Of a stretch of DNA of 28,665 bases, positions 8,829-27,134 are shown one piece after another. Each line of letters begins with the position of its first letter. Positions within the stretch are counted from its first letter, which is position 1. The position numbers were made by a program, and so were the translations under genes. Source of the DNA: a virus (Duplodnaviria > Heunggongvirae > Uroviricota > Caudoviricetes); the IMG/VR virus record IMGVR_UViG_2740892282_000008; one strand, given 5' to 3'. The notes under the pieces were generated by a model that had not been told where the DNA came from, made no database searches, and saw nothing but the letters and a program-made list of their open reading frames with translations.

Positions 8829-9762
8829 TTTTCCTCACATATGTCATATAGTAAAGGATTATATATACCGTTGTTTTGGACGCTCAAACAGCGAATCAGA
8901 TCAAATAAAACGCACATTTGTTAACATTTACACAAAGTCTGCGTGGGATATTCTGAAAGAATATCCATAATGTGGAGAGAATCTATTGAAGTGCATGGTG
9001 CCGGGTGCCTCCCGGTGAACAAAATGTTCGTGATACCTGTCGGCGACAGAAAAGGTTAATGGTATCACCCCACCGCACAGGGGGATTCACCATGCAGGAG
9101 TTTTCTTAGCAAACTCACTGCGCGCCCGGCAACTCCCAACCACATAAAATGCGGAGTTTGTGGTATTTATGCATATAACTCGCAGGAATTATCTTAAAAA
9201 ACTGATGTCGATCCGGATTAAAAAGAAGCAGGTCATCATCAGATGACTGGAAAAAAGGAAAACAAAAAATACTCATCATACAGTTTTGATTGCAGGGATG
9301 AGCCTGCTATGCACAATATGCAGAATATAAGCAAGATAAAAATATGCAGGCATATTATTTCGGATTTTGTTATTAACACAACCTTTTTAATAATCATTTG
9401 GCATACAATAAACCAGCCCAAAAAGAACCGCCTAAACAGGCGGTTGGTCAATACAAAGGATGCTTCGTCTTTATTATAGTAATCTGAGGCGTCGGGTGTC
9501 TTGTATCAGACAACATATTGTCCCGCTAAACAGCGAATTACAAACCACCCTGCAATGATCTCTCATCTCATTTTATATGAGTTGACGACATCAGGATAAC
9601 GCATCATCAGCCCCTGCCAAGAAATATCAAAACTCCCGCCAGCAATGTGTTATCACAATATTGTAAAAAAAACACAGCACCGAAACTATAACTGGTCTCT
9701 GTTATAATTTGGAGCAGAAAGACCAGTTGCCCAACTAGCAGCATTCTCCCCTGCTTTCCTGA

Positions 9763-11301: not shown

Positions 11302-11574
11302 TTCTCAATCTCTCGATGGCGCAGTGCAGCAGATGCCAGTTGTTCAGGCTGACGTATAAAGTATAAATAAACTGGTTCCAGTGTAAAGCCCCCACCTTAA
11401 TGGAATAAAAACCAAACAACAGATTGCTGGGATACAAACAACGCTTATTATTAAAAGCGGTTAAACAAATTAAATTTTAATGTTATGCAAATTTGTCAGA
11501 TCACCATAATATCTCATTTGAAAACCGCTGAAATAACAATCCTATCAGGATTAATCATATTAAGGTGAGTAAAT

Positions 11575-11661
11575 ATGGAAAACAACAAATCTGCACATTA
11601 CGCTCCTTTTTTATCTGTAATACTTTTTGTTTTTTGCTGTGTATGGGCATTATTTTTATAA
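11575..11661 (+). CDS. Candidate small hydrophobic peptide (28 aa, MENNKSAHYAPFLSVILFVFCCVWALFL)
   Basis: ATG preceded by AAGGTGAG at good spacing; polar N-terminus then a single transmembrane-like segment; convergent with hok. No homologue recognised. Confidence 0.3.
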   Translation: MENNKSAHYAPFLSVILFVFCCVWALFL

Positions 11662-11769
11662 AAATATTCACAGATAAAATAAACTCGCCGAATCAGGTTA
11701 AGTGTGGGTGCGTTGAGGATGCCTGACACATCAGAGGCGGCGAGGGATTTCTCCCTCGCCTAGTCACTC

Positions 11770-11925
11770 TTACTCCTCAGGTTCGTAAGCTGTGAAGACA
11801 GCGACCTCCGTCTGACCGGTTCGGATTCGCACCTCGCAGAGGTCTTTCCTCGTTACCAGTGCCGTCACTATGACGGTTAAACAGATGACAATCAGTGCGA
11901 CTAACATCGCCTTTTGCTGCTTCAT
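11770..11925 (-). CDS. hok: Hok-family type I toxin (51 aa); in-frame mok-like extension to 11982
   Basis: MKQQKAMLVALIVICLTVIVTALVTRKDLCEVRIRTGQTEVAVFTAYEPEE is near-identical to my recollection of HokD; AAGGAG RBS; upstream in-frame ATG at 11982 gives a 70-aa mok-like ORF; 9-bp hairpin ggcgaggga/tccctcgcc just 3' of the stop. Confidence 0.85.
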   Translation of the reverse strand: MKQQKAMLVALIVICLTVIVTALVTRKDLCEVRIRTGQTEVAVFTAYEPEE

Positions 11926-12136
11926 AGCCTGCTTCTCCTTGCCTTCCGGCGCGTAAGAGGCTAACCTACATGTGCAAAGCATGAAATTGGCCTCAGATTA
12001 ATGTTAAGCGTCTTGCCGGACGCGTAATGTTATCTGGGGCTTTTCTCTATCTGCCTTTGGTGTTCATGCCTGAGGCAGATAGCCTCAAGCACCCGCAGCA
12101 ATTCTACTTAACTCCCGTCACCTCGCCAATATAAAA

Positions 12137-12226
12137 TCAATCAGAAAGGCGATCCATAAGAACAACAGCAAGACAATAAATTGCCATTACAGCCGCAATA
12201 GCTAGCGCACATTTGAGAACCAGCAC
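12137..12226 (-). CDS. Candidate small membrane peptide (29 aa, GTG start)
   Basis: GTG preceded by AGGAGG at 5 nt; encodes VLVLKCALAIAAVMAIYCLAVVLMDRLSD, a single hydrophobic helix. It overlaps the 74-aa six-frame ORF at 12141-12365 in a different frame. Confidence 0.25.
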   Translation of the reverse strand: MLVLKCALAIAAVMAIYCLAVVLMDRLSD

Positions 12227-12645: not shown

Positions 12646-13845
12646 ATGCCATTTGTTATTTATGTGTTTACTATCAGTGCCTTTGCGCTCGGACTCGCGG
12701 AATTTGTCCCCATTGGGCTGACAGACGTTATGGCTCAGGGGTTGTGTGTGGGTGTGGAGCAGACCGGGGCAGCGGTTACAACCTATGCACTGGGGGCAAC
12801 GTTCGCGGCACCCGTACTGTCTGCGCTGACAGCAAGCTGGAGCCGGAAAAATGTAATGCTTACAACTGCCGTTGTGTTTACTGCCGGTAGTCTGGCGGCC
12901 GCGTTTGCAGCCACATTACCTCAGCTCCTGTTAGCGCGGTTCATTGCTGGTCTGGGACACGGCCTGTTTCTGGCTGCGGCATCCAGTACCGCAGCTCGTC
13001 TTGCTGGACCGGGTAAAGCAGGCAGAGCGGTGGCTGTGGTATTTGGTGGCTTTACTCTGGCGATGGCAATCGGCGTACCGCTGAGTACATGGTTGGGGGG
13101 GGGGGTCTCATGGCGTCCAGTTCTCGGCGCTATTGCCGCTTTTGGCGCGTTCGGATTCCTTGGACTGTTGTTCGGTATGAAAGATCCCGTACGCAGCGTG
13201 CCCGGTGAACATAGTGACTCAGCAATGCAGAATATCGGCATGCTGTTTAACCGTAAGTTGCTGGCCGGCGCGCTGGTTACGGTGCTGGCGTATGCAGGCT
13301 CGTTTACGGATTACACCTTTATCGCACCTATTCTGACGCAGGTGACAGGGGTTACCGGAGCAACGGTGAGTCTGTTTATGCTGGTTTACGGTATTACAGC
13401 TGCGGTAGGTAATATTCTTGGTGGGAAACTTACCGACAGCATGGGGGTTAATCGTGCCAATATACTCATCATTAGCGGCATTGTTGTTGTCGTGCTTGGT
13501 ATGTGGCTGCTGTCATCCTCACCGGTGAGCATGGGCATTCTGGTTGCGCTGCTGGGTATGGTGACATTTGCCGCAGTGCCGGCACTGCAGGCCCGTCTGA
13601 TTGGTGTCGCTGAGCAACATGCTCCTCATGCGCATGGTGTTGCTGCCGGCCTGAATATTGCGGGCTTCAACTCAGGTATAGCGCTGGGATCAGTACTGGG
13701 CAGCATTACTATAAGCCACGCCGGTATCGTGTATACCGGTATCAGCGGTGCGATTGTTTCTCTGCTCGGCCTGCTGTTGCTGCTTGCACAAATCCGTCGC
13801 AGCCACAGTCGTAAATTTCAACAGGTTAAAATCGTAGGCCAGTAA
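12646..13845 (+). CDS. MFS transporter (399 aa)
   Basis: About 12 predicted transmembrane helices, Gly/Ala-rich major-facilitator-like sequence; AGGAG RBS; GC-rich relative to phage DNA; contains an 11-G tract. Confidence 0.85.
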   Translation: MPFVIYVFTISAFALGLAEFVPIGLTDVMAQGLCVGVEQTGAAVTTYALGATFAAPVLSALTASWSRKNVMLTTAVVFTAGSLAAAFAATLPQLLLARFIAGLGHGLFLAAASSTAARLAGPGKAGRAVAVVFGGFTLAMAIGVPLSTWLGGGVSWRPVLGAIAAFGAFGFLGLLFGMKDPVRSVPGEHSDSAMQNIGMLFNRKLLAGALVTVLAYAGSFTDYTFIAPILTQVTGVTGATVSLFMLVYGITAAVGNILGGKLTDSMGVNRANILIISGIVVVVLGMWLLSSSPVSMGILVALLGMVTFAAVPALQARLIGVAEQHAPHAHGVAAGLNIAGFNSGIALGSVLGSITISHAGIVYTGISGAIVSLLGLLLLLAQIRRSHSRKFQQVKIVGQ

Positions 13846-13856
13846 AGGGAGGTTAT

Positions 13857-14549
13857 ATGCTTACCCGTGAAAATATGCTTAATGGCACATTTGTCAGGGT
13901 GCATGAAGCGCTGCTCCCGGCGAATATGCTCTGGGACGCTGAAAAAATACGCGCATCAATGAACTCTACTCTGGAGGAGCGCCCGACGGGTGCTCCTGTC
14001 TGGATATTTGCCTACGGGTCATTGATGTGGAATCCCGTGCTGGCGATTGAAGAAATGCAACGGGCCCGTCTGAAAGGATGGCAGCGCAGTTTCTGCATTC
14101 GTTTGATATCCGGACGAGCGACTCCTGATGTCCCCGGCAGGATGTTATCGCTCGACGAAGGTGGAATTACCGAAGGTATTGCGTTCAGACTGCCGGAATC
14201 GACTCTTATTAATGAGCTGGAAATTGTCTGGACGCGCGAGATGATAACCGGTCTTTACCGTCCGGTCTGGGCAGACGTTTCGCTAGGAAACGGTGAGGAA
14301 ATTCAGGCGCTGGCTTTCGTATCAGACAGACTGCATCCGCATTATGAACAGGACAATCTTACAGCGACCGTAGCGTTGAGCATCGCATCTGCCCGTGGAG
14401 ACATTGGCACGAATGCAGATTATGTATGGAAACTGCAGGCCACTCTGGGTGCGTTGGGAATACGGGATGATTACGTGAGTGAACTGGCCCTTGCTCTGCA
14501 TGAGGCTCCCTGTAACGATAAACTTCATCAGCGAGGCGCTTCACTATGA
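13857..14549 (+). CDS. ChaC-family gamma-glutamylcyclotransferase-like protein (230 aa)
   Basis: VWIFAYGSLMWNP and GRMLSLDEGG motifs resemble E. coli ChaC; GGGAGG RBS. Confidence 0.75.
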   Translation: MLTRENMLNGTFVRVHEALLPANMLWDAEKIRASMNSTLEERPTGAPVWIFAYGSLMWNPVLAIEEMQRARLKGWQRSFCIRLISGRATPDVPGRMLSLDEGGITEGIAFRLPESTLINELEIVWTREMITGLYRPVWADVSLGNGEEIQALAFVSDRLHPHYEQDNLTATVALSIASARGDIGTNADYVWKLQATLGALGIRDDYVSELALALHEAPCNDKLHQRGASL

Positions 14550-15427
14550 GCCATCTGAGCCATCTGCGAACGTTTCTTGAGGCCTATCGCTCTGGCTCCT
14601 TTTCAAAGGCGGCAGAACTACTGGGCATCACTCAGCCCGCGGCGTCACAGCATATCCAGTCTCTTGAGACTCTGGTTGGTAAGCGTCTGTTTATCAGGCA
14701 GGCCAGAGGCGTGACGGCAACCGAAGCTGCGGATGAGCTTGCCCGCTCAGTTTCACCCTTCATTGATGGTCTGGAAGAAAAGCTGTCCTCTTTCCGGTCA
14801 GGCTCTGTACGCGGGGGAACAATTAATCTGGCAGGACCGCCAGATTTTATTCATTCCCGGCTTGGGACAGTAATGGCTCCACTAATGAAGGAGGGGTATC
14901 GCCTACGCTTTCATACCGGCAATAAGCAACGTATTTATTCCCTTTTGCATGACGGGAGCGCCGATCTCGCTGTTACCGCATCTATGCCTGATGACCGTCT
15001 GTACGGCTATGCACATCTACTGACTGAACGCATGCTCCTTGTTCATGCTCCCGCCATGTCAGAGATCATCGGATCAGAACCTGGTGCTGAAACGCTTGCC
15101 TCATTACCGCTGATTGCTTATGACGAAGAGTTGCCACTGATTAGAGCGCTCTGGGCCTCCATGTTTCAGAGAGCCCCTGAGATGCAGGCTACATTCACCA
15201 TTCCGGATTTACGTATTATCCGCGACTTGGTCTGTGACGGCCACGGGTGGACAGTGCTGCCGGATTATCACTGTGACAATGACCTGAAAAGTGGTCGCCT
15301 GATTTCAGTGACACCTGCAGACCTCGCTCCGACTAATCATCTTTATCTGGTCTGGAACAAAAGGACGGCTAATAACAGCCGAACCGCCTATGTTCGGGAT
15401 TACATTCTTAAAACGTTTCCGCGTTGA
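14546..15427 (+). CDS. LysR-type transcriptional regulator (293 aa)
   Basis: N-terminal LysR HTH (LRTFLEAYRSGSFSKAAELLGITQPAASQHIQSLE) and C-terminal substrate-binding-like domain; ATGA overlap with the ChaC-like gene. Confidence 0.85.
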   Translation: MSHLSHLRTFLEAYRSGSFSKAAELLGITQPAASQHIQSLETLVGKRLFIRQARGVTATEAADELARSVSPFIDGLEEKLSSFRSGSVRGGTINLAGPPDFIHSRLGTVMAPLMKEGYRLRFHTGNKQRIYSLLHDGSADLAVTASMPDDRLYGYAHLLTERMLLVHAPAMSEIIGSEPGAETLASLPLIAYDEELPLIRALWASMFQRAPEMQATFTIPDLRIIRDLVCDGHGWTVLPDYHCDNDLKSGRLISVTPADLAPTNHLYLVWNKRTANNSRTAYVRDYILKTFPR

Positions 15428-15471
15428 TGTTTGAAACGGATGATTGGCGATGCGTATCATAAGTTACGTAT

Positions 15472-15495
15472 GTCCGCTTCTGGCACAAAGCAGAC
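15472..15495. repeat. Dyad element copy A: GTCCGCT-tctggcacaa-AGCAGAC
   Basis: 7-bp arms (one mismatch) with 10-bp spacer, between convergent LysR and membrane-protein genes; 20 of 24 positions identical to copy B. Confidence 0.6.
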
Positions 15496-15557
15496 GCCCA
15501 CTCTCACGCGAATGCTTTGCCCTTGACTTGCCAACAACCGTATCGCTTGCTCCGCAA

Positions 15558-16835
15558 CTATGGTTTTTTATTAGAATCTTCGCCACTAAATAAATTATAA
15601 TAAATTGATTTTATTAGATATCTGTCAGAATCTATATGGTCAGCACGAGTAGCATGCTCTAATGTTTCAAATGCTAGGGTTTGTGCGGCTTCAGCAAAAA
15701 TTCCAGGCCAACCCTTACTCAGCATCGACAGTCCTTTAAGTACCCTTATCTGAATTTCCCTCATACTGGCACCATCGCGCGCAACAGGTGAGAAAAAGTC
15801 TTCAAGTAGATCGTTATTCTGAAGTGGTGCAACATGTACAGAAGGATATTTCACTTCTATTTCATCAGATTTATTCTGCGCGTAAGCGGAAAGTATACGT
15901 ACACCTCTGCCAATGACATCAATGGCGGTTCCAGGATCGTTCACTGCGGGGGAAAGGGCTCGGCAGGCTATTTCGGCCATGACGCTAAGACAAAATCGGG
16001 GGTCCTGAGCAAATGAACGTACATCCGAGACAATAATCGTCTCAAGTAAATCGGTGCTGATTGATGACTCCTGGCCCTGACTCAGGTACAAAACTGGCGT
16101 GGACGGATGTATGAAACTGCCCGGCTGCGCCACGAGGTATACATGACGGGGATCATTGGTCAGCAGCTTGCTGAGTTTCACCATATCAACATATTCAACA
16201 TAGCCAATCTTTTTCGGATAAACTGCAACCGTTCCTTTCGGCTGTTCATTGTTCTCAAGCCATGGATATCCGCCGAGACAGGGATTTCTTGCTCTCGCAA
16301 TAAATGTTTCGATGGCCGCCTGTTCTACTTTTGCCGTTGTCTCACCAACCCTCCCCAGAGAGGTCAAATGCTGTATCCAGCGAAGCAATGTGATGAGGAT
16401 TAAGGCAATGACAACCAGTGTTACAATGAATAAAATGACTCTCCCCCTTTCTCCATAAGCTCCCATATTGAGGGCAATAATCCCTACCAGACTGAAGAGA
16501 AAAGAACCGATGAAGGTGGCCAGTACATTTTGTGTGGTGACGTCTTCAACAACTAAACGAGTAGCTCTGGGAGTCACATTAGTAGTGGCTGAACCGTAGG
16601 CTGTGACCATGATGCTCAGCGAAAATGTGGTCACTGCCAGCATACTCGATGCCAGTATGTTCAGAATGTTATCGACTGCTTCCGCACCAACCTTCACGGA
16701 AACCGACTCAGGTATCATTGATTTAAAAAGAATTGATAAAAGGGCCGTTATTATTGCGACAATTGCGAATAACGTTGCCCTGAACCATAGTTTTTTAAAT
16801 GTCTGCTTCAGCATCCATTTCCAGCGTGAAATCAT
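15558..16835 (-). CDS. Membrane protein of unknown function (about 425 aa; resembles DUF2254-type predicted membrane proteins)
   Basis: Several N-terminal transmembrane helices and a large soluble C-terminal domain; start chosen at the second ATG (16835), which has a GAGGGA RBS; the maximal ORF extends to 16850. Family assignment is from memory and tentative. Confidence 0.55.
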   Translation of the reverse strand: MISRWKWMLKQTFKKLWFRATLFAIVAIITALLSILFKSMIPESVSVKVGAEAVDNILNILASSMLAVTTFSLSIMVTAYGSATTNVTPRATRLVVEDVTTQNVLATFIGSFLFSLVGIIALNMGAYGERGRVILFIVTLVVIALILITLLRWIQHLTSLGRVGETTAKVEQAAIETFIARARNPCLGGYPWLENNEQPKGTVAVYPKKIGYVEYVDMVKLSKLLTNDPRHVYLVAQPGSFIHPSTPVLYLSQGQESSISTDLLETIIVSDVRSFAQDPRFCLSVMAEIACRALSPAVNDPGTAIDVIGRGVRILSAYAQNKSDEIEVKYPSVHVAPLQNNDLLEDFFSPVARDGASMREIQIRVLKGLSMLSKGWPGIFAEAAQTLAFETLEHATRADHIDSDRYLIKSIYYNLFSGEDSNKKP

Positions 16836-16870
16836 TCTGCATTCCCTCATATTGCAGCCGGGATAAATAA

Positions 16871-16891
16871 ATGCCGCCTCTGTGGCGGCAT
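16871..16891 (-). terminator. Hairpin between the BCCT transporter and the membrane-protein gene; possible intrinsic terminator or attenuator
   Basis: 8-bp stem atgccgcc/ggcggcat with loop tctgt; on the minus strand it is followed by ttatttatcc. Confidence 0.4.
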
Positions 16892-16898
16892 GTTGCTG

Positions 16899-18902
16899 TT
16901 AACGAACCAGATGCAGGAAGTGCAGGTGTTTTTCGTACTGGTCCAGTATGTCATTAATCAGCTGTTCCTGATTCCAGCCCATTACATCATAATTTTGGCC
17001 GCCCTCTTTGAGATAGACTTCAGCGCGATAATATCGATGTTGTTCACTCTGCTGCTCATCATTATCCAGCGCAGCGAGCGCGAAGGTCGGTGAGTTATAC
17101 CCGCGAAGCCTCACTTCATATATATAATTCAGCTCGTTGCCCAAATCGACTTCAAGGCGAATACGATCCTCGGCGGCGTCACTGATGTGGCTTATCGTTC
17201 CCTGCTTGTTAAGTTCCTCCTGAACCAGCGTCATGGCGGGTTGGATAATGTCGTCCATAAAACGTTTCACAAGAGAGCGCTTCGGCAAATACGCGATATT
17301 GCGTAACCTTCTCTGCCAGGGAATTGGGTTACGTGCAGCCGTAGGAGCAATAGTCGCCATGCTAAGGCTTTCACGCTTGGTCAAATCCCGACGCAGGGCT
17401 TTTAACAGTCCGTATATGGATATTAATAAGATAACTGAGAAGGGCAATGCACTCGCTATCGTTACGGTTTGCAACGCACTCAGCCCCCCTGCGATCAGCA
17501 GGGCAATAGCAACAACGCCCATGAGCGATGCCCAGAAAATTCGCTGCCAGACGGGCGTGTTTGCCACCCCACCTGATGCCAGAGTATCCACAACCATTGC
17601 CCCCGAATCAGCAGACGTTACAAAGAAGACGATGACCATCGCCATTGCAATGAATGACAGCACGGAAGAGAACGGGAAATGCTCCAGGAAATTAAACAGG
17701 GCAAGCGCAACATCCTGCTGAACGGTATTGGCGAGGTCAGTGGCGCCCTGGTTCATGATGAGATAGATGGCGCTGTTTCCAAACACCGTCATCCACATGA
17801 GCGTAAAGCCGGCGGGAACAAACAACACGCCAGTCACGAACTCACGAATTGTCCTGCCGCGGGAAACGCGTGCAATGAACATACCTACAAACGGCGACCA
17901 TGAAAGCCACCATCCCCAGTATAATAATGTCCAGCCCCCCAGCCAGTTGCTCGACTTGGGTTCATACGCGTAAAGGTTGAACGTTTTACTCACCAGTTCC
18001 GACAGATAACCACCCGTATTTTCCACAAATGACTTCAGCAGAAGCACAGTGGGACCCAGGCACAAGACCAGCGCCAGGAGCAACACCGCCAGGCCCAGAT
18101 TAAGCTCAGACAGGATGCGTATTCCCTTGTCCAGGCCGGACACCACCGAAATCGTCGCTAACCCCGTGATGACCACGATCAAAATGACCTGTACCGTTTC
18201 ATTGATGGGCACGCCGAAAAGATGGTTCAAACCGGCATTCACCTGCAATACACCGTAACCCAGCGATGTTGCAACGCCAAAGACAGTGCCTATCACGGCG
18301 AAGATATCAACCGCGTGGCCTATAGGCCCGTAAATGCGATCGCCGATAATGGGATAGAGCGCAGAACGCAGCGTTAAAGGCAGACCGTGACGGTAACTGA
18401 AAAAGGCCAGAATCAGCGCCACGATGGCATAAATTGCCCATGCGTGCAGACCCCAGTGGAAGAACGTCAGGCGCATGGCTTCCTTCGCTGCCGCAACGGT
18501 CTCTGGAGTGCCGACAGGTGGCGAAAGATAATGCATCACAGGTTCGGCAACGCCAAAGAACATCAGGCCGATCCCCATCCCTGCCGAAAAAAGCATCGCG
18601 AACCAGGAGTGGTAGCTGAAATCAGGCTGCGCATGGTCTGGGCCCAGCTTTATATCACCGTAACGTGAGAGTCCAAGGAACGTGACGCTCAGTAAAATCA
18701 GGGCCACAGCAAGTATGTAGAACCAGCTGGCATTCGTGAAGATTTGTTGCTGAAGTAGTTTAAAATTTTTGTCGGCGACATCCGGGAATACGGCGGCAAA
18801 GGCGACAAGAAGGAAAATTAGCAAAGCAGATGTAAAGAATACCGCTTTGTTAATCTGGCTTGTAGACTTCTTTGGGGTTGTATCATTTTCACTCATAATC
18901 AT
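16899..18902 (-). CDS. BCCT-family transporter, BetT-like (667 aa)
   Basis: Collinear similarity to my recollection of E. coli BetT, including LSELN, WTLLYWGWWLSWSPFVGMFIARVSRGRTIREF and the cytoplasmic C-terminal extension ending DILDQYEKHLHFLHL. Confidence 0.9.
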   Translation of the reverse strand: MIMSENDTTPKKSTSQINKAVFFTSALLIFLLVAFAAVFPDVADKNFKLLQQQIFTNASWFYILAVALILLSVTFLGLSRYGDIKLGPDHAQPDFSYHSWFAMLFSAGMGIGLMFFGVAEPVMHYLSPPVGTPETVAAAKEAMRLTFFHWGLHAWAIYAIVALILAFFSYRHGLPLTLRSALYPIIGDRIYGPIGHAVDIFAVIGTVFGVATSLGYGVLQVNAGLNHLFGVPINETVQVILIVVITGLATISVVSGLDKGIRILSELNLGLAVLLLALVLCLGPTVLLLKSFVENTGGYLSELVSKTFNLYAYEPKSSNWLGGWTLLYWGWWLSWSPFVGMFIARVSRGRTIREFVTGVLFVPAGFTLMWMTVFGNSAIYLIMNQGATDLANTVQQDVALALFNFLEHFPFSSVLSFIAMAMVIVFFVTSADSGAMVVDTLASGGVANTPVWQRIFWASLMGVVAIALLIAGGLSALQTVTIASALPFSVILLISIYGLLKALRRDLTKRESLSMATIAPTAARNPIPWQRRLRNIAYLPKRSLVKRFMDDIIQPAMTLVQEELNKQGTISHISDAAEDRIRLEVDLGNELNYIYEVRLRGYNSPTFALAALDNDEQQSEQHRYYRAEVYLKEGGQNYDVMGWNQEQLINDILDQYEKHLHFLHLVR

Positions 18903-19144
18903 TTATTCCATTAATTAAATCCGCACTGGATAGAAGGTACTACCTCTCACAGAGTAGCAAAGTTCAACTGGCTATGCGGGGTTAATCGGAATGCATGGTG
19001 GAATGAGTGCCGATACAAATCATCCTATATTCTAAGGAGTTTTAAGTTACTCAGCCTGCCAATTACTGGGGCATTTAATTTGTATGATCTGTATCAAAGC
19101 TGGGATATAAGTTAAGTGAAGTATATTAGGCACGAATTACCAGC

Positions 19145-26737: not shown

Positions 26738-26932
26738 ATGAGATATGACAATGTTAAACCATGTCCATTTTGTGGTTGTCCATCAGTAACGGTGAAAGCC
26801 ATTTCAGGATATTACCGAGCGAAGTGTAACGGATGTGAATCCCGAACCGGTTATGGTGGAAGTGAAAAAGAAGCACTCGAAAGATGGAATAAACGAACCA
26901 CTGGAAATAATAATGGAGGTGTTCATGTATAA
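26738..26932 (+). CDS. ralR: Restriction alleviation protein / type I toxin RalR (Lar, 64 aa)
   Basis: MRYDNVKPCPFCGCPSVTVKAISGYYRAKCNGCESRTGYGGSEKEALERWNKRTTGNNNGGVHV matches my recollection of Rac RalR. Confidence 0.8.
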   Translation: MRYDNVKPCPFCGCPSVTVKAISGYYRAKCNGCESRTGYGGSEKEALERWNKRTTGNNNGGVHV

Positions 26933-27134
26933 AATTACCGCCACTATTGAAAAGGAAGGTGGCACTCCTACTAACTGGACAAGATATTCAAAATCTAAAC
27001 TAACGAAATCAGAATGCGAAAAAATGCTCTCAGGTAAAAAAGAAGCAGGCGTTTCCAGAGAGCAGAAAGTAAAACTGATAAATTTTAATTGCGAGAAACT
27101 TCAGTCCTCGAGAATTGCATTGTATTCAAATTAA
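26925..27134 (+). CDS. ydaC: YdaC (69 aa)
   Basis: ATG with GGAGGTG RBS, overlapping the ralR stop by 8 nt; MYKITATIEKEGGTPTNWTRYSKSKLTKSECEKMLSGKK... Confidence 0.75.
   Translation: MYKITATIEKEGGTPTNWTRYSKSKLTKSECEKMLSGKKEAGVSREQKVKLINFNCEKLQSSRIALYSN

Follow-up and report, generated by a model that had tools for sequence, protein, structure and literature searches.

A 28-codon gene in a mobile prophage cassette convergent with a hok/mok/sok locus of Escherichia coli

Does a very small open reading frame (ORF) that runs head-on toward a hok toxin gene belong to that toxin locus, or is it something else? The question is raised by the IMG/VR virus record IMGVR_UViG_2740892282_000008, a stretch of 28,665 nucleotides referred to here as the window, which comes from a Rac-like lambdoid prophage of Escherichia coli and has the locus in its equivalent of the nin region. 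The original prediction, made from the sequence alone, described in the nin region a Hok-family gene with an in-frame mok-like ORF and a 3' hairpin, and about 110 bp beyond the hok stop, on the opposite strand, a 28-codon ORF with a strong Shine-Dalgarno (SD) sequence. The small ORF was presented as a feature of the hok locus and its product was likened to small membrane toxins. All of these elements were found in the positions given for them, and 108 nt separate the last base of the 28-codon ORF from the last base of hok, the two genes standing tail to tail. The assignment of the small ORF to the hok locus, however, did not hold. We favour a reading, with a probability of about 0.6, in which two independent modules meet tail to tail: a canonical hok/mok/sok locus, and a separate cassette of ~225 bp with the behaviour of a prophage moron.

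The 28-codon ORF is a gene under purifying selection

The mean Kyte-Doolittle hydropathy of the 28-residue peptide was -1.44 over residues 1-11 and +2.86 over residues 12-28, in agreement with the polar head and single hydrophobic helix that had been predicted. Copies of the ORF were collected through an anchor placed outside it, an invariant 21-mer lying ~90 nt upstream, in order to avoid self-selection. When this anchor was scanned over IMG/VR, 124 usable matches were obtained, 3 of them unrelated, and the 28-codon frame was intact in all homologous loci (121/121). The ORF was likewise kept in 8/8 RefSeq loci sampled from 100% to ~75% identity. The pooled loci comprised 131 copies and 19 haplotypes, all of exactly 28 codons, and among the six frames the 28-codon frame alone was open across all 19 haplotypes.

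The pattern of substitution is that of a protein-coding sequence. Segregating sites were distributed 6/9/17 over the three codon positions. Parsimony on a neighbour-joining tree assigned 20 synonymous against 25 non-synonymous events, compared with an expectation of ~20% synonymous (p = 1.4e-4, ω about 0.3), and comparison of the window with the most distant copy (L141) alone gave 9 synonymous and 4 non-synonymous changes (p = 1.3e-4). Between clades, pN/pS of the ORF ranged from 0.11 to 0.44, and the ORF was 84-87% identical without any indels, while the 55 nt preceding the SD sequence were heavily substituted and carried indels. The SD core itself, TAAGGTG, was kept in all clades, as TAAAGTG in the L004 type. 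Replacements within the helix were conservative (V/I/A/L/F/C). Residues P11, F12-L13-S14, I16-L17-F18, C21, W24 and F27-L28 were invariant or nearly so, with P11, C21 and W24 strictly invariant. The 28-codon ORF is a real gene, and it is under purifying selection.

A 20-nt inverted repeat (11609-11628/11660-11679) joins the inside of the ORF to the segment past its stop codon; its arms are 80% complementary and share a perfectly paired core of 10 nt. We examined this repeat as a possible conserved mRNA structure and rejected it, as it is present in hok-adjacent copies only and its changes do not covary.

A discrete, mobile cassette independent of hok

A divergent form of the gene, the L141 type, shows where the unit begins and ends. 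Its similarity to the E. coli copies is confined to ~230 bp, running from a small hairpin to the stop codon, and these limits set the unit at window positions ~11442-11665, i.e. ~225 bp including the 28-codon gene. The cassette has a GC content of 28-30% as against 47-57% (about 50%) in its flanks, and its orientation is opposite to that of the early-right operon. On the right, similarity ends within a few bases of the stop codon of the small gene in four different genomic contexts. The same junction is seen from the hok side: homology between the hok loci of phage 933W, E. coli K-12 and the window stops just past the 3' fbi element, or past the following hairpin in the hokD type, and phage BLAST matches to the hok side start at window position 11677-11696.

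What lies beyond the stop codon varies. Among 120 classifiable viral contigs, hok was adjacent in 68, the fbi end alone was found in 14 and neither in 38; about a third of the sampled cassette copies are without hok. The 14 contigs with the fbi end alone carry the cassette followed by the hok 3' fbi element, and a hok coding-region probe gave no match in them; they may be truncated or divergent hok loci. In E. coli H22 (L003), a strong bidirectional terminator comes next, and beyond it the anti-phage gene iteS in convergent orientation; in four other strains (L006-L009), the cassette is followed by unrelated sequence and a DUF1971 gene. The divergent form (L141 639-870, and the metagenomic L163, L165 and L166) is ~78% identical and lies at a prophage end, where the L141-type cassette adjoins a 992-aa tail-fibre-like gene and an integrase gene. 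The core genes flanking this prophage in L141 (ptrB-yebE) are only ~87% identical to those of E. coli, and its host is therefore another enterobacterial species. Conversely, the cassette was absent from the hok loci of the K-12 Qin prophage, mEp460 and 933W. That the 28-codon ORF forms part of the K-12 Qin rem-hokD spacer was ruled out by its absence there.

Presence or absence between related phage genomes, several contexts and deviant base composition are features of a moron, and all of them were found. The cassette is a discrete and mobile unit independent of hok; its presence without hok, and at another prophage position in another species, is what removes the small gene from the hok locus to which it had been assigned.

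With a 211-nt query centred on the ORF, the cassette was found in 1178 of the 5426 complete E. coli genomes (~22%), at 100% to ~75% identity. No gene was annotated over it among the matches listed, nor in the RefSeq and phage records examined. A relaxed, degenerate protein-level pattern, run against one genome per species, retrieved Shigella flexneri and Escherichia ruysiae only, plus 8 chance matches, and tblastn against phages and plasmids returned Escherichia copies only. The gene thus appears to be confined to enterobacterial prophages, with Escherichia and Shigella among the named hosts, plus one relative.

The iteS arrangement of H22 was also seen in 11 similar viral contigs. The iteS gene (L003 1747-3210), named 'S8 family anti-phage peptidase' by the Prokaryotic Genome Annotation Pipeline (PGAP), occupies the slot of hok, and the bidirectional terminator between it and the small ORF has a folding energy of -22 kcal/mol (z = -8.8). 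The hok/iteS site behaves as a hot spot for exchange of cargo. Our search of the literature on IteS or on lambdoid hot spots found nothing relevant.

Table 1. Features of the small-gene cassette and of the adjoining hok/mok/sok locus (window coordinates)
Feature	Position	Strand	Basis or remark
Cassette left-edge hairpin, CGCTT-ATTATTAA-AAGCG, 5 bp, invariant loop	11442..11459		L141-type homology begins here
Invariant AT-rich block AAATTAAATTTTAATGTTATG	11467..11487	+	putative UP-element and -35 region, or regulator site
Candidate -10 hexamer TAATAT of small-ORF mRNA	11507..11512	+	putative; predicted start near 11519
Small hairpin in 5' untranslated region, AATCC-TATCA-GGATT	11537..11551	+	compensatory change, with mismatched variants
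SD sequence AAGGTGAG of 28-codon gene	11562..11569	+	7 nt ahead of ATG
28-codon gene, small hydrophobic peptide MENNKSAHYAPFLSVILFVFCCVWALFL	11575..11661	+	ORF list; conservation in 131 copies
Eroded copy of hairpin following hokD-type mRNA, CTCGCCGAATCAGG	11684..11697		two point changes relative to CCCGCCGAAGCGGG
fbi element at hok mRNA 3' end, partner of 5' tac	11706..11723	-	conserved in window, 933W and K-12
GC-rich hairpin just 3' of hok stop codon, GGCGAGGGATTTCTCCCTCGCC	11739..11760	-	sequence; forms in full-length fold
hok toxin coding sequence (PGAP 'hokD'), 51 aa	11770..11925	-	
mok, in-frame N-terminally extended frame of hok, 70 aa	11770..11982	-	ATG at 11982
sok promoter TTGCCT-17-TAACCT	11939..11967	+	read from sequence, putative by homology; 7 nt upstream of mapped Sok start
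Sok antisense RNA	11974..12044	+	coordinates transferred from annotated sokW of phage 933W via alignment
hok mRNA leader (tac, mok translation-initiation region, Sok target)	11920..12094	-	Rfam RF01794
hok promoter TTGGCG-17-TAGAAT	12101..12129	-	promoter scan; 7 nt upstream of first base of leader

Expression and probable role of the small gene

Three non-coding blocks of the cassette are essentially invariant: the left-edge hairpin, the AT-rich block AAATTAAATTTTAATGTTATG, and CATAATAT at 11505-11512. Over 85 unique cassette sequences the AT-rich block was 98-100% conserved in all five clades, except for an A/C variation at 11473 (84%). The candidate -10 hexamer occurs as TAATAT, TAACAT or TAGCAT (TA[AG][TC]AT), so that variation is confined to positions -10 and -9, while T-12, A-11, A-8 and T-7 do not change in any clade, the L141 type included. 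Constancy at -12, -11, -8 and -7 with variation at -10 and -9 is what one would expect of a σ70 -10 element. On the minus strand the hexamer is overlapped by TATGGT, which the L141 type has lost. On sequence grounds, the invariant upstream blocks read best as a putative promoter of the cassette's own. The variable 17 bp ahead of the -10 hexamer would then be the spacer, the AT-rich block would supply a poor -35 element together with an UP-like region, and the mRNA of the small ORF would start near 11519 with a leader of 55 nt. Within this leader a small hairpin may form, although its variants speak both ways: the T-A pair is replaced by C-G (AACCC...GGGTT) in 29 loci and by U-G in 5, and a C-A mismatch occurs in 18.

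The small-protein search with the peptide that had been suggested as a check yielded no family, protein-collection or literature match. Against Pfam, NCBIfam, PHROGs and PADLOC, nothing better than E = 0.046 was obtained, all of it from unrelated families below their cut-offs, and in these collections the peptide falls outside the known toxin families Hok, Ldr, Ibs, ShoB, TisB, DinQ and Zor. Exact look-up of 8 peptide variants in a collection of 15 billion proteins found none of them, the peptide strings had no match in the searchable literature, and the supplement on novel small genes of O157 Sakai does not contain the peptide. Its absence from annotation probably reflects small size, which may also account for its absence from the collection; common gene callers apply a minimum length of about 90 nt.

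Two identities were considered for the peptide and rejected. It is not a lipoprotein signal peptide, as the lipobox [LVI][ASTVI][GAS]C is not conserved: lipobox-like strings (LFAGC, LFAC) are found only in minor variants, and the common forms are FVFC or FVLC. Nor is it a leader peptide or attenuator of the Phe type, there being no constant gene downstream on the same strand. The downstream neighbours are convergent hok, convergent iteS, a distant DUF1971 gene or unrelated sequence, and the Rfam Phe_leader match in the cassette scored 15 bits against 55. The small gene represents a new family of a known kind, the prophage-borne small hydrophobic protein.

Three groups of known genes invite comparison. 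Some type I toxins are very small (ShoB 26 aa, Ibs 19 aa, DinQ 27 aa and TisB 29 aa). The peptide is similar to them in size and shares a single hydrophobic helix, a polar head like that of ShoB and a location in horizontally acquired DNA, but there is no sequence relationship, no demonstrable complementary small RNA (sRNA) and no long structured 5' untranslated region (UTR). Like the morons bor and lom of lambda or gp15 of HK97, the cassette is discrete, differs in composition from its surroundings, lies between phage operons in opposite orientation and at varied positions, and probably has its own promoter. Unlike the morons described, it is much smaller (225 bp, 28 codons) and carries no terminator of its own, and its expression in the lysogen is presumed. 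Finally, AcrZ, MgtS, PmrR and CydX of E. coli are also single-helix membrane peptides of <50 aa that annotation pipelines missed, although the present peptide is prophage-borne and shows no homology to them (NCBIfam models, no match at E <= 0.01).

Discreteness, foreign GC content, opposite orientation, varied positions and a probable promoter of its own are hallmarks of morons, and they therefore favour a small membrane protein of benefit to the lysogen. Translation of only 28 codons ends while the peptide is still within the ribosome tunnel, and its insertion would therefore be post-translational. It would be tail-anchored in the inner membrane, the polar head of 11 residues remaining in the cytoplasm and residues 12-28 lying within the bilayer, and would act in the membrane of the lysogen on a membrane function of the host or of an incoming phage. 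Superinfection exclusion, or modulation of a membrane protein, are candidate modes of action. We think that such a role in the lysogen membrane is most likely, and a post-segregational toxin less likely.

Several observations weigh against this account. The candidate -35 element is poor, matching at 3/6 positions at best; neither the consensus scan nor the position weight matrix scan ranked a plus-strand promoter highly, and AT-rich DNA yields many promoter-like hexamers. The conservation of the left-edge hairpin slightly favours an RNA from the minus strand and is not explained by a simple promoter model. The cassette has no terminator of its own and relies on whatever follows; the hairpin after the ORF was considered as such a terminator and ruled out, as it belongs to the hokD-type module and, elsewhere, to other neighbours. 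The cellular role, moreover, is a guess from architecture and location, which do not distinguish exclusion or modulation from toxicity.

The most serious competitor, though a clearly less probable one, is that the cassette is a new type I toxin-antitoxin system, whose 28-residue toxin of ShoB/Ibs-like architecture would damage membranes and whose antitoxin RNA would be made from the minus strand, starting at ~11547 (TTTCCA-16-TATGAT) or ~11496 (-10 TATGGT) and ending at the hairpin 11459-11442 with its T-rich tail. The resemblance to small membrane toxins noted in the original prediction is genuine as regards architecture, since ShoB, Ibs and DinQ are peptides of <30 aa with a polar head and a hydrophobic C-terminus; it does not extend to a match with any known toxin family, to a convincing antitoxin RNA or to a fold sequestering the SD sequence. 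Promoter-like sites do occur on the minus strand (9/12 at 11581->11554, and in every E. coli clade a -10 TATGGT/TATGAT at a constant position), and the sole terminator-like site flagged by the scan in the region is the left-edge hairpin read on that strand, which also forms the left boundary of the cassette. Its stem covaries (CACTT/AAGTG in the L141 type), and stem variants in 28 loci, and in the L006-type clade, pair only as G-U on the minus strand. That the slot also houses hok and the anti-phage gene iteS would suit a toxin as well. The hairpin is weak, however, at about -5 kcal/mol (-5.2 in the scan), and the L141 type lacks the T-tract after it and loses T-7 of its minus-strand -10. All Rfam matches in the cassette (nine at E <= 10) fall short of their gathering scores, the duplex energy of the putative sRNA with the small-ORF mRNA is no better than that of shuffled controls, and the consensus fold of the minus strand gave no convincing structure. 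The consensus fold of the 5' UTR (-2.8 kcal/mol) showed no compensatory pairs and no conserved structure sequestering the SD sequence, whose pairing probabilities vary with the mRNA ends assumed. A strong conserved SD sequence, 100% intact copies and presence in a fifth of genomes are easier to reconcile with a non-lethal product. We regard as unlikely also the fullest version of this idea, a self-contained type I family of Escherichia prophages in which a tail-anchored toxin would be paired with a minus-strand RNA of 60-110 nt, the three invariant blocks being promoter, body and terminator of that RNA, and which would be transferred as a unit from one prophage hot spot to another, frequently ending up tail to tail with hok.

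It is quite improbable that the ORF is untranslated and that the conserved element is a non-coding RNA or a DNA site in which the frame is incidental. The absence of the peptide from the protein collection, from the annotation of the records examined and from the literature text searched would fit such a view, and so would the near absence of synonymous variation in the last six codons with the stop and in codons 11-13, which could reflect constraint at the nucleotide level; against it are the excess of third-position and synonymous changes, the conservative helix replacements, the sole open frame in all haplotypes, an SD sequence and ATG conserved while the UTR drifts, and recombination junctions immediately past the stop codon. 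A functional tie to hok, in which the convergent small-ORF transcript would be antisense to fbi and modulate the locking or decay of hok mRNA, we consider very improbable. The two genes do lie tail to tail at short distance, about 57-68% of the copies are beside hok, and the intervening hairpin is eroded in the window, which makes read-through plausible. Yet about a third of the copies have no hok, the hok loci of 933W, K-12 Qin and mEp460 do without the cassette, some hok-adjacent relatives (e.g. L002, L004, L052 and L090) retain an intact hairpin between the two units while many others have variant stems, and selection acts on the protein sequence of the small gene.

On our preferred reading of two independent modules, a selected 28-codon gene is carried by ~22% of complete E. 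coli genomes, unannotated in the records examined and with no family or literature match. It stands at the edge of a prophage slot that exchanges toxin and anti-phage cargo (hok, iteS), and its cassette of 225 bp is compact enough for direct tests of toxicity, of phage exclusion and of effects on hok. If the product is a true toxin with an RNA antitoxin of its own, it would found a new type I family; if it is not, it would add to the poorly charted small membrane proteins encoded by prophages.

The hok/mok/sok locus and its prophage surroundings

Judged by its sequence, the hok/mok/sok locus is complete and canonical, with every element present. It is already known biology, and new only as annotation of mok and Sok, both omitted by PGAP, which annotates 'hokD' only between 11301 and 12646. 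The Hok protein is identical to K-12 HokD at 50/51 residues (98%) and contains the Hok/Gef toxin domain (Pfam PF01848 HOK_GEF, 82.4 bits against a cut-off of 22). Mok is 89% identical to MokW of phage 933W, and the mok frame matches PHROG 251, 'MokW-like host killing', at E = 1.6e-32; chromosomal loci such as mokC/hokC likewise have mok in frame. The leader gave a full-length match to Rfam RF01794 at 12094-11920 (116.1 bits against a gathering score of 59, model positions 1-157). This model, although named 'sok', is built on the hok-sense leader.

A Sok-like RNA, which could not be located by eye in the original prediction, is present and canonical on the plus strand opposite the mok initiation region. 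It is predicted to fold with a single-stranded 5' tail, a long terminator hairpin and a U-tract (-30.6 kcal/mol, z = -4.5). The hexamers of its putative promoter score under the threshold of the promoter scan. At the other end of the hok mRNA, the minimum free energy (MFE) and centroid folds of 12094->11700 both pair the first ~20 nt with fbi, closing tac on fbi (z = -6.7).

For the hok family, the tac/fbi lock, 3' trimming, coupling to mok and control by Sok are an established mechanism. In the window, a stable hok mRNA would accordingly be kept inert by pairing of 5' tac with 3' fbi; after 3' trimming, translation of hok would follow from its coupling to mok, and pairing of the short-lived Sok RNA with the mok initiation region would prevent it. 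The locus agrees in its parts and their order with hokW/mokW/sokW of the Stx phage 933W and with hokC/mokC and hokD of E. coli, namely promoter, tac, in-frame mok, Sok target, hok, hairpin and fbi, with Sok on the opposite strand, and its DNA is ~92% identical to that of 933W. K-12 hokD, by comparison, is fused behind relBE and has lost its leader, homology ending a short way 5' of the hok start, at the junction with relE, whereas the window copy is complete.

Relative to K-12 hokD, the hairpin that follows the mRNA carries two point changes in the window; nothing else is unusual. The intact form CCCGCCGAAGCGGG follows the hokD-type mRNA in K-12 and in several relatives (e.g. L002, L004). In L004 the hairpin at this site is stable, while in the fold of the window it is absent on either strand, and MFE values for the 11684-11697 region from folds of the whole stretch were -12.5 kcal/mol in L004 and -8.0/-5.4 kcal/mol in the window. 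Erosion of this stem makes convergent read-through between hok and the small ORF likelier in this strain than in relatives with an intact stem.

Many E. coli isolates, e.g. CP53 and ECCHD184, have chromosomal sequence 100% identical to this region of the window, and E. coli LY180 (NC_022364) has a copy of the cassette beside hok at 96% identity. To the left of the locus are DUF1367, DUF1364 and DUF1133 genes followed by lysis genes; to the right are a cargo island and then ydaT-type immunity and replication genes, sieB and kilR. With replication genes on the right, and the DUF1367/DUF1364/DUF1133 and lysis genes on the left, early-right transcription is therefore on the minus strand. The cargo island (~12646-19000), an insertion that separates hok from the replication genes of the prophage, is of metabolic and transport character, with an MFS transporter, a gamma-glutamylcyclotransferase, a LysR regulator, a DUF2254 protein and a BCCT transporter. 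Elsewhere in the window, Rfam matches above gathering score, all on the minus strand, were RalA at 26931-27109 (225 bits), IS009 at 510-708 (227 bits) and STnc100 at 8939-9125 (87 bits). RalA is the antitoxin RNA of the RalR type I system; together with the hok locus, this match indicates a prophage with at least two type I toxin-antitoxin loci.

A 70-bp block to the left of the cassette (11326-11394) is 97-100% conserved and accompanies the cassette in 123/127 loci. It holds a promoter-like site on the minus strand (11360-11387; TTTACA-16-TATACT, 10/12) directed toward the DUF1367 gene, and it is kept 5' of two different leftward genes, either DUF1367 or a gene for a 92-aa hypothetical protein followed by DUF968. 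A constitutive-looking promoter heading a nin-type operon is unexpected for a prophage.

On the far side of hok we observed a second unannotated small hydrophobic ORF (12137-12226, minus strand, 29 aa), encoding (M)LVLKCALAIAAVMAIYCLAVVLMDRLSD. It has no family match. The ORF has a GTG start with AGGAGG 5 nt ahead of it, and 7 nt lie between the end of its stop codon and the hok -35 hexamer. It was intact in 34 related loci, in which only conservative changes were seen (M/I/V, V/I, M/T, D/E/N).

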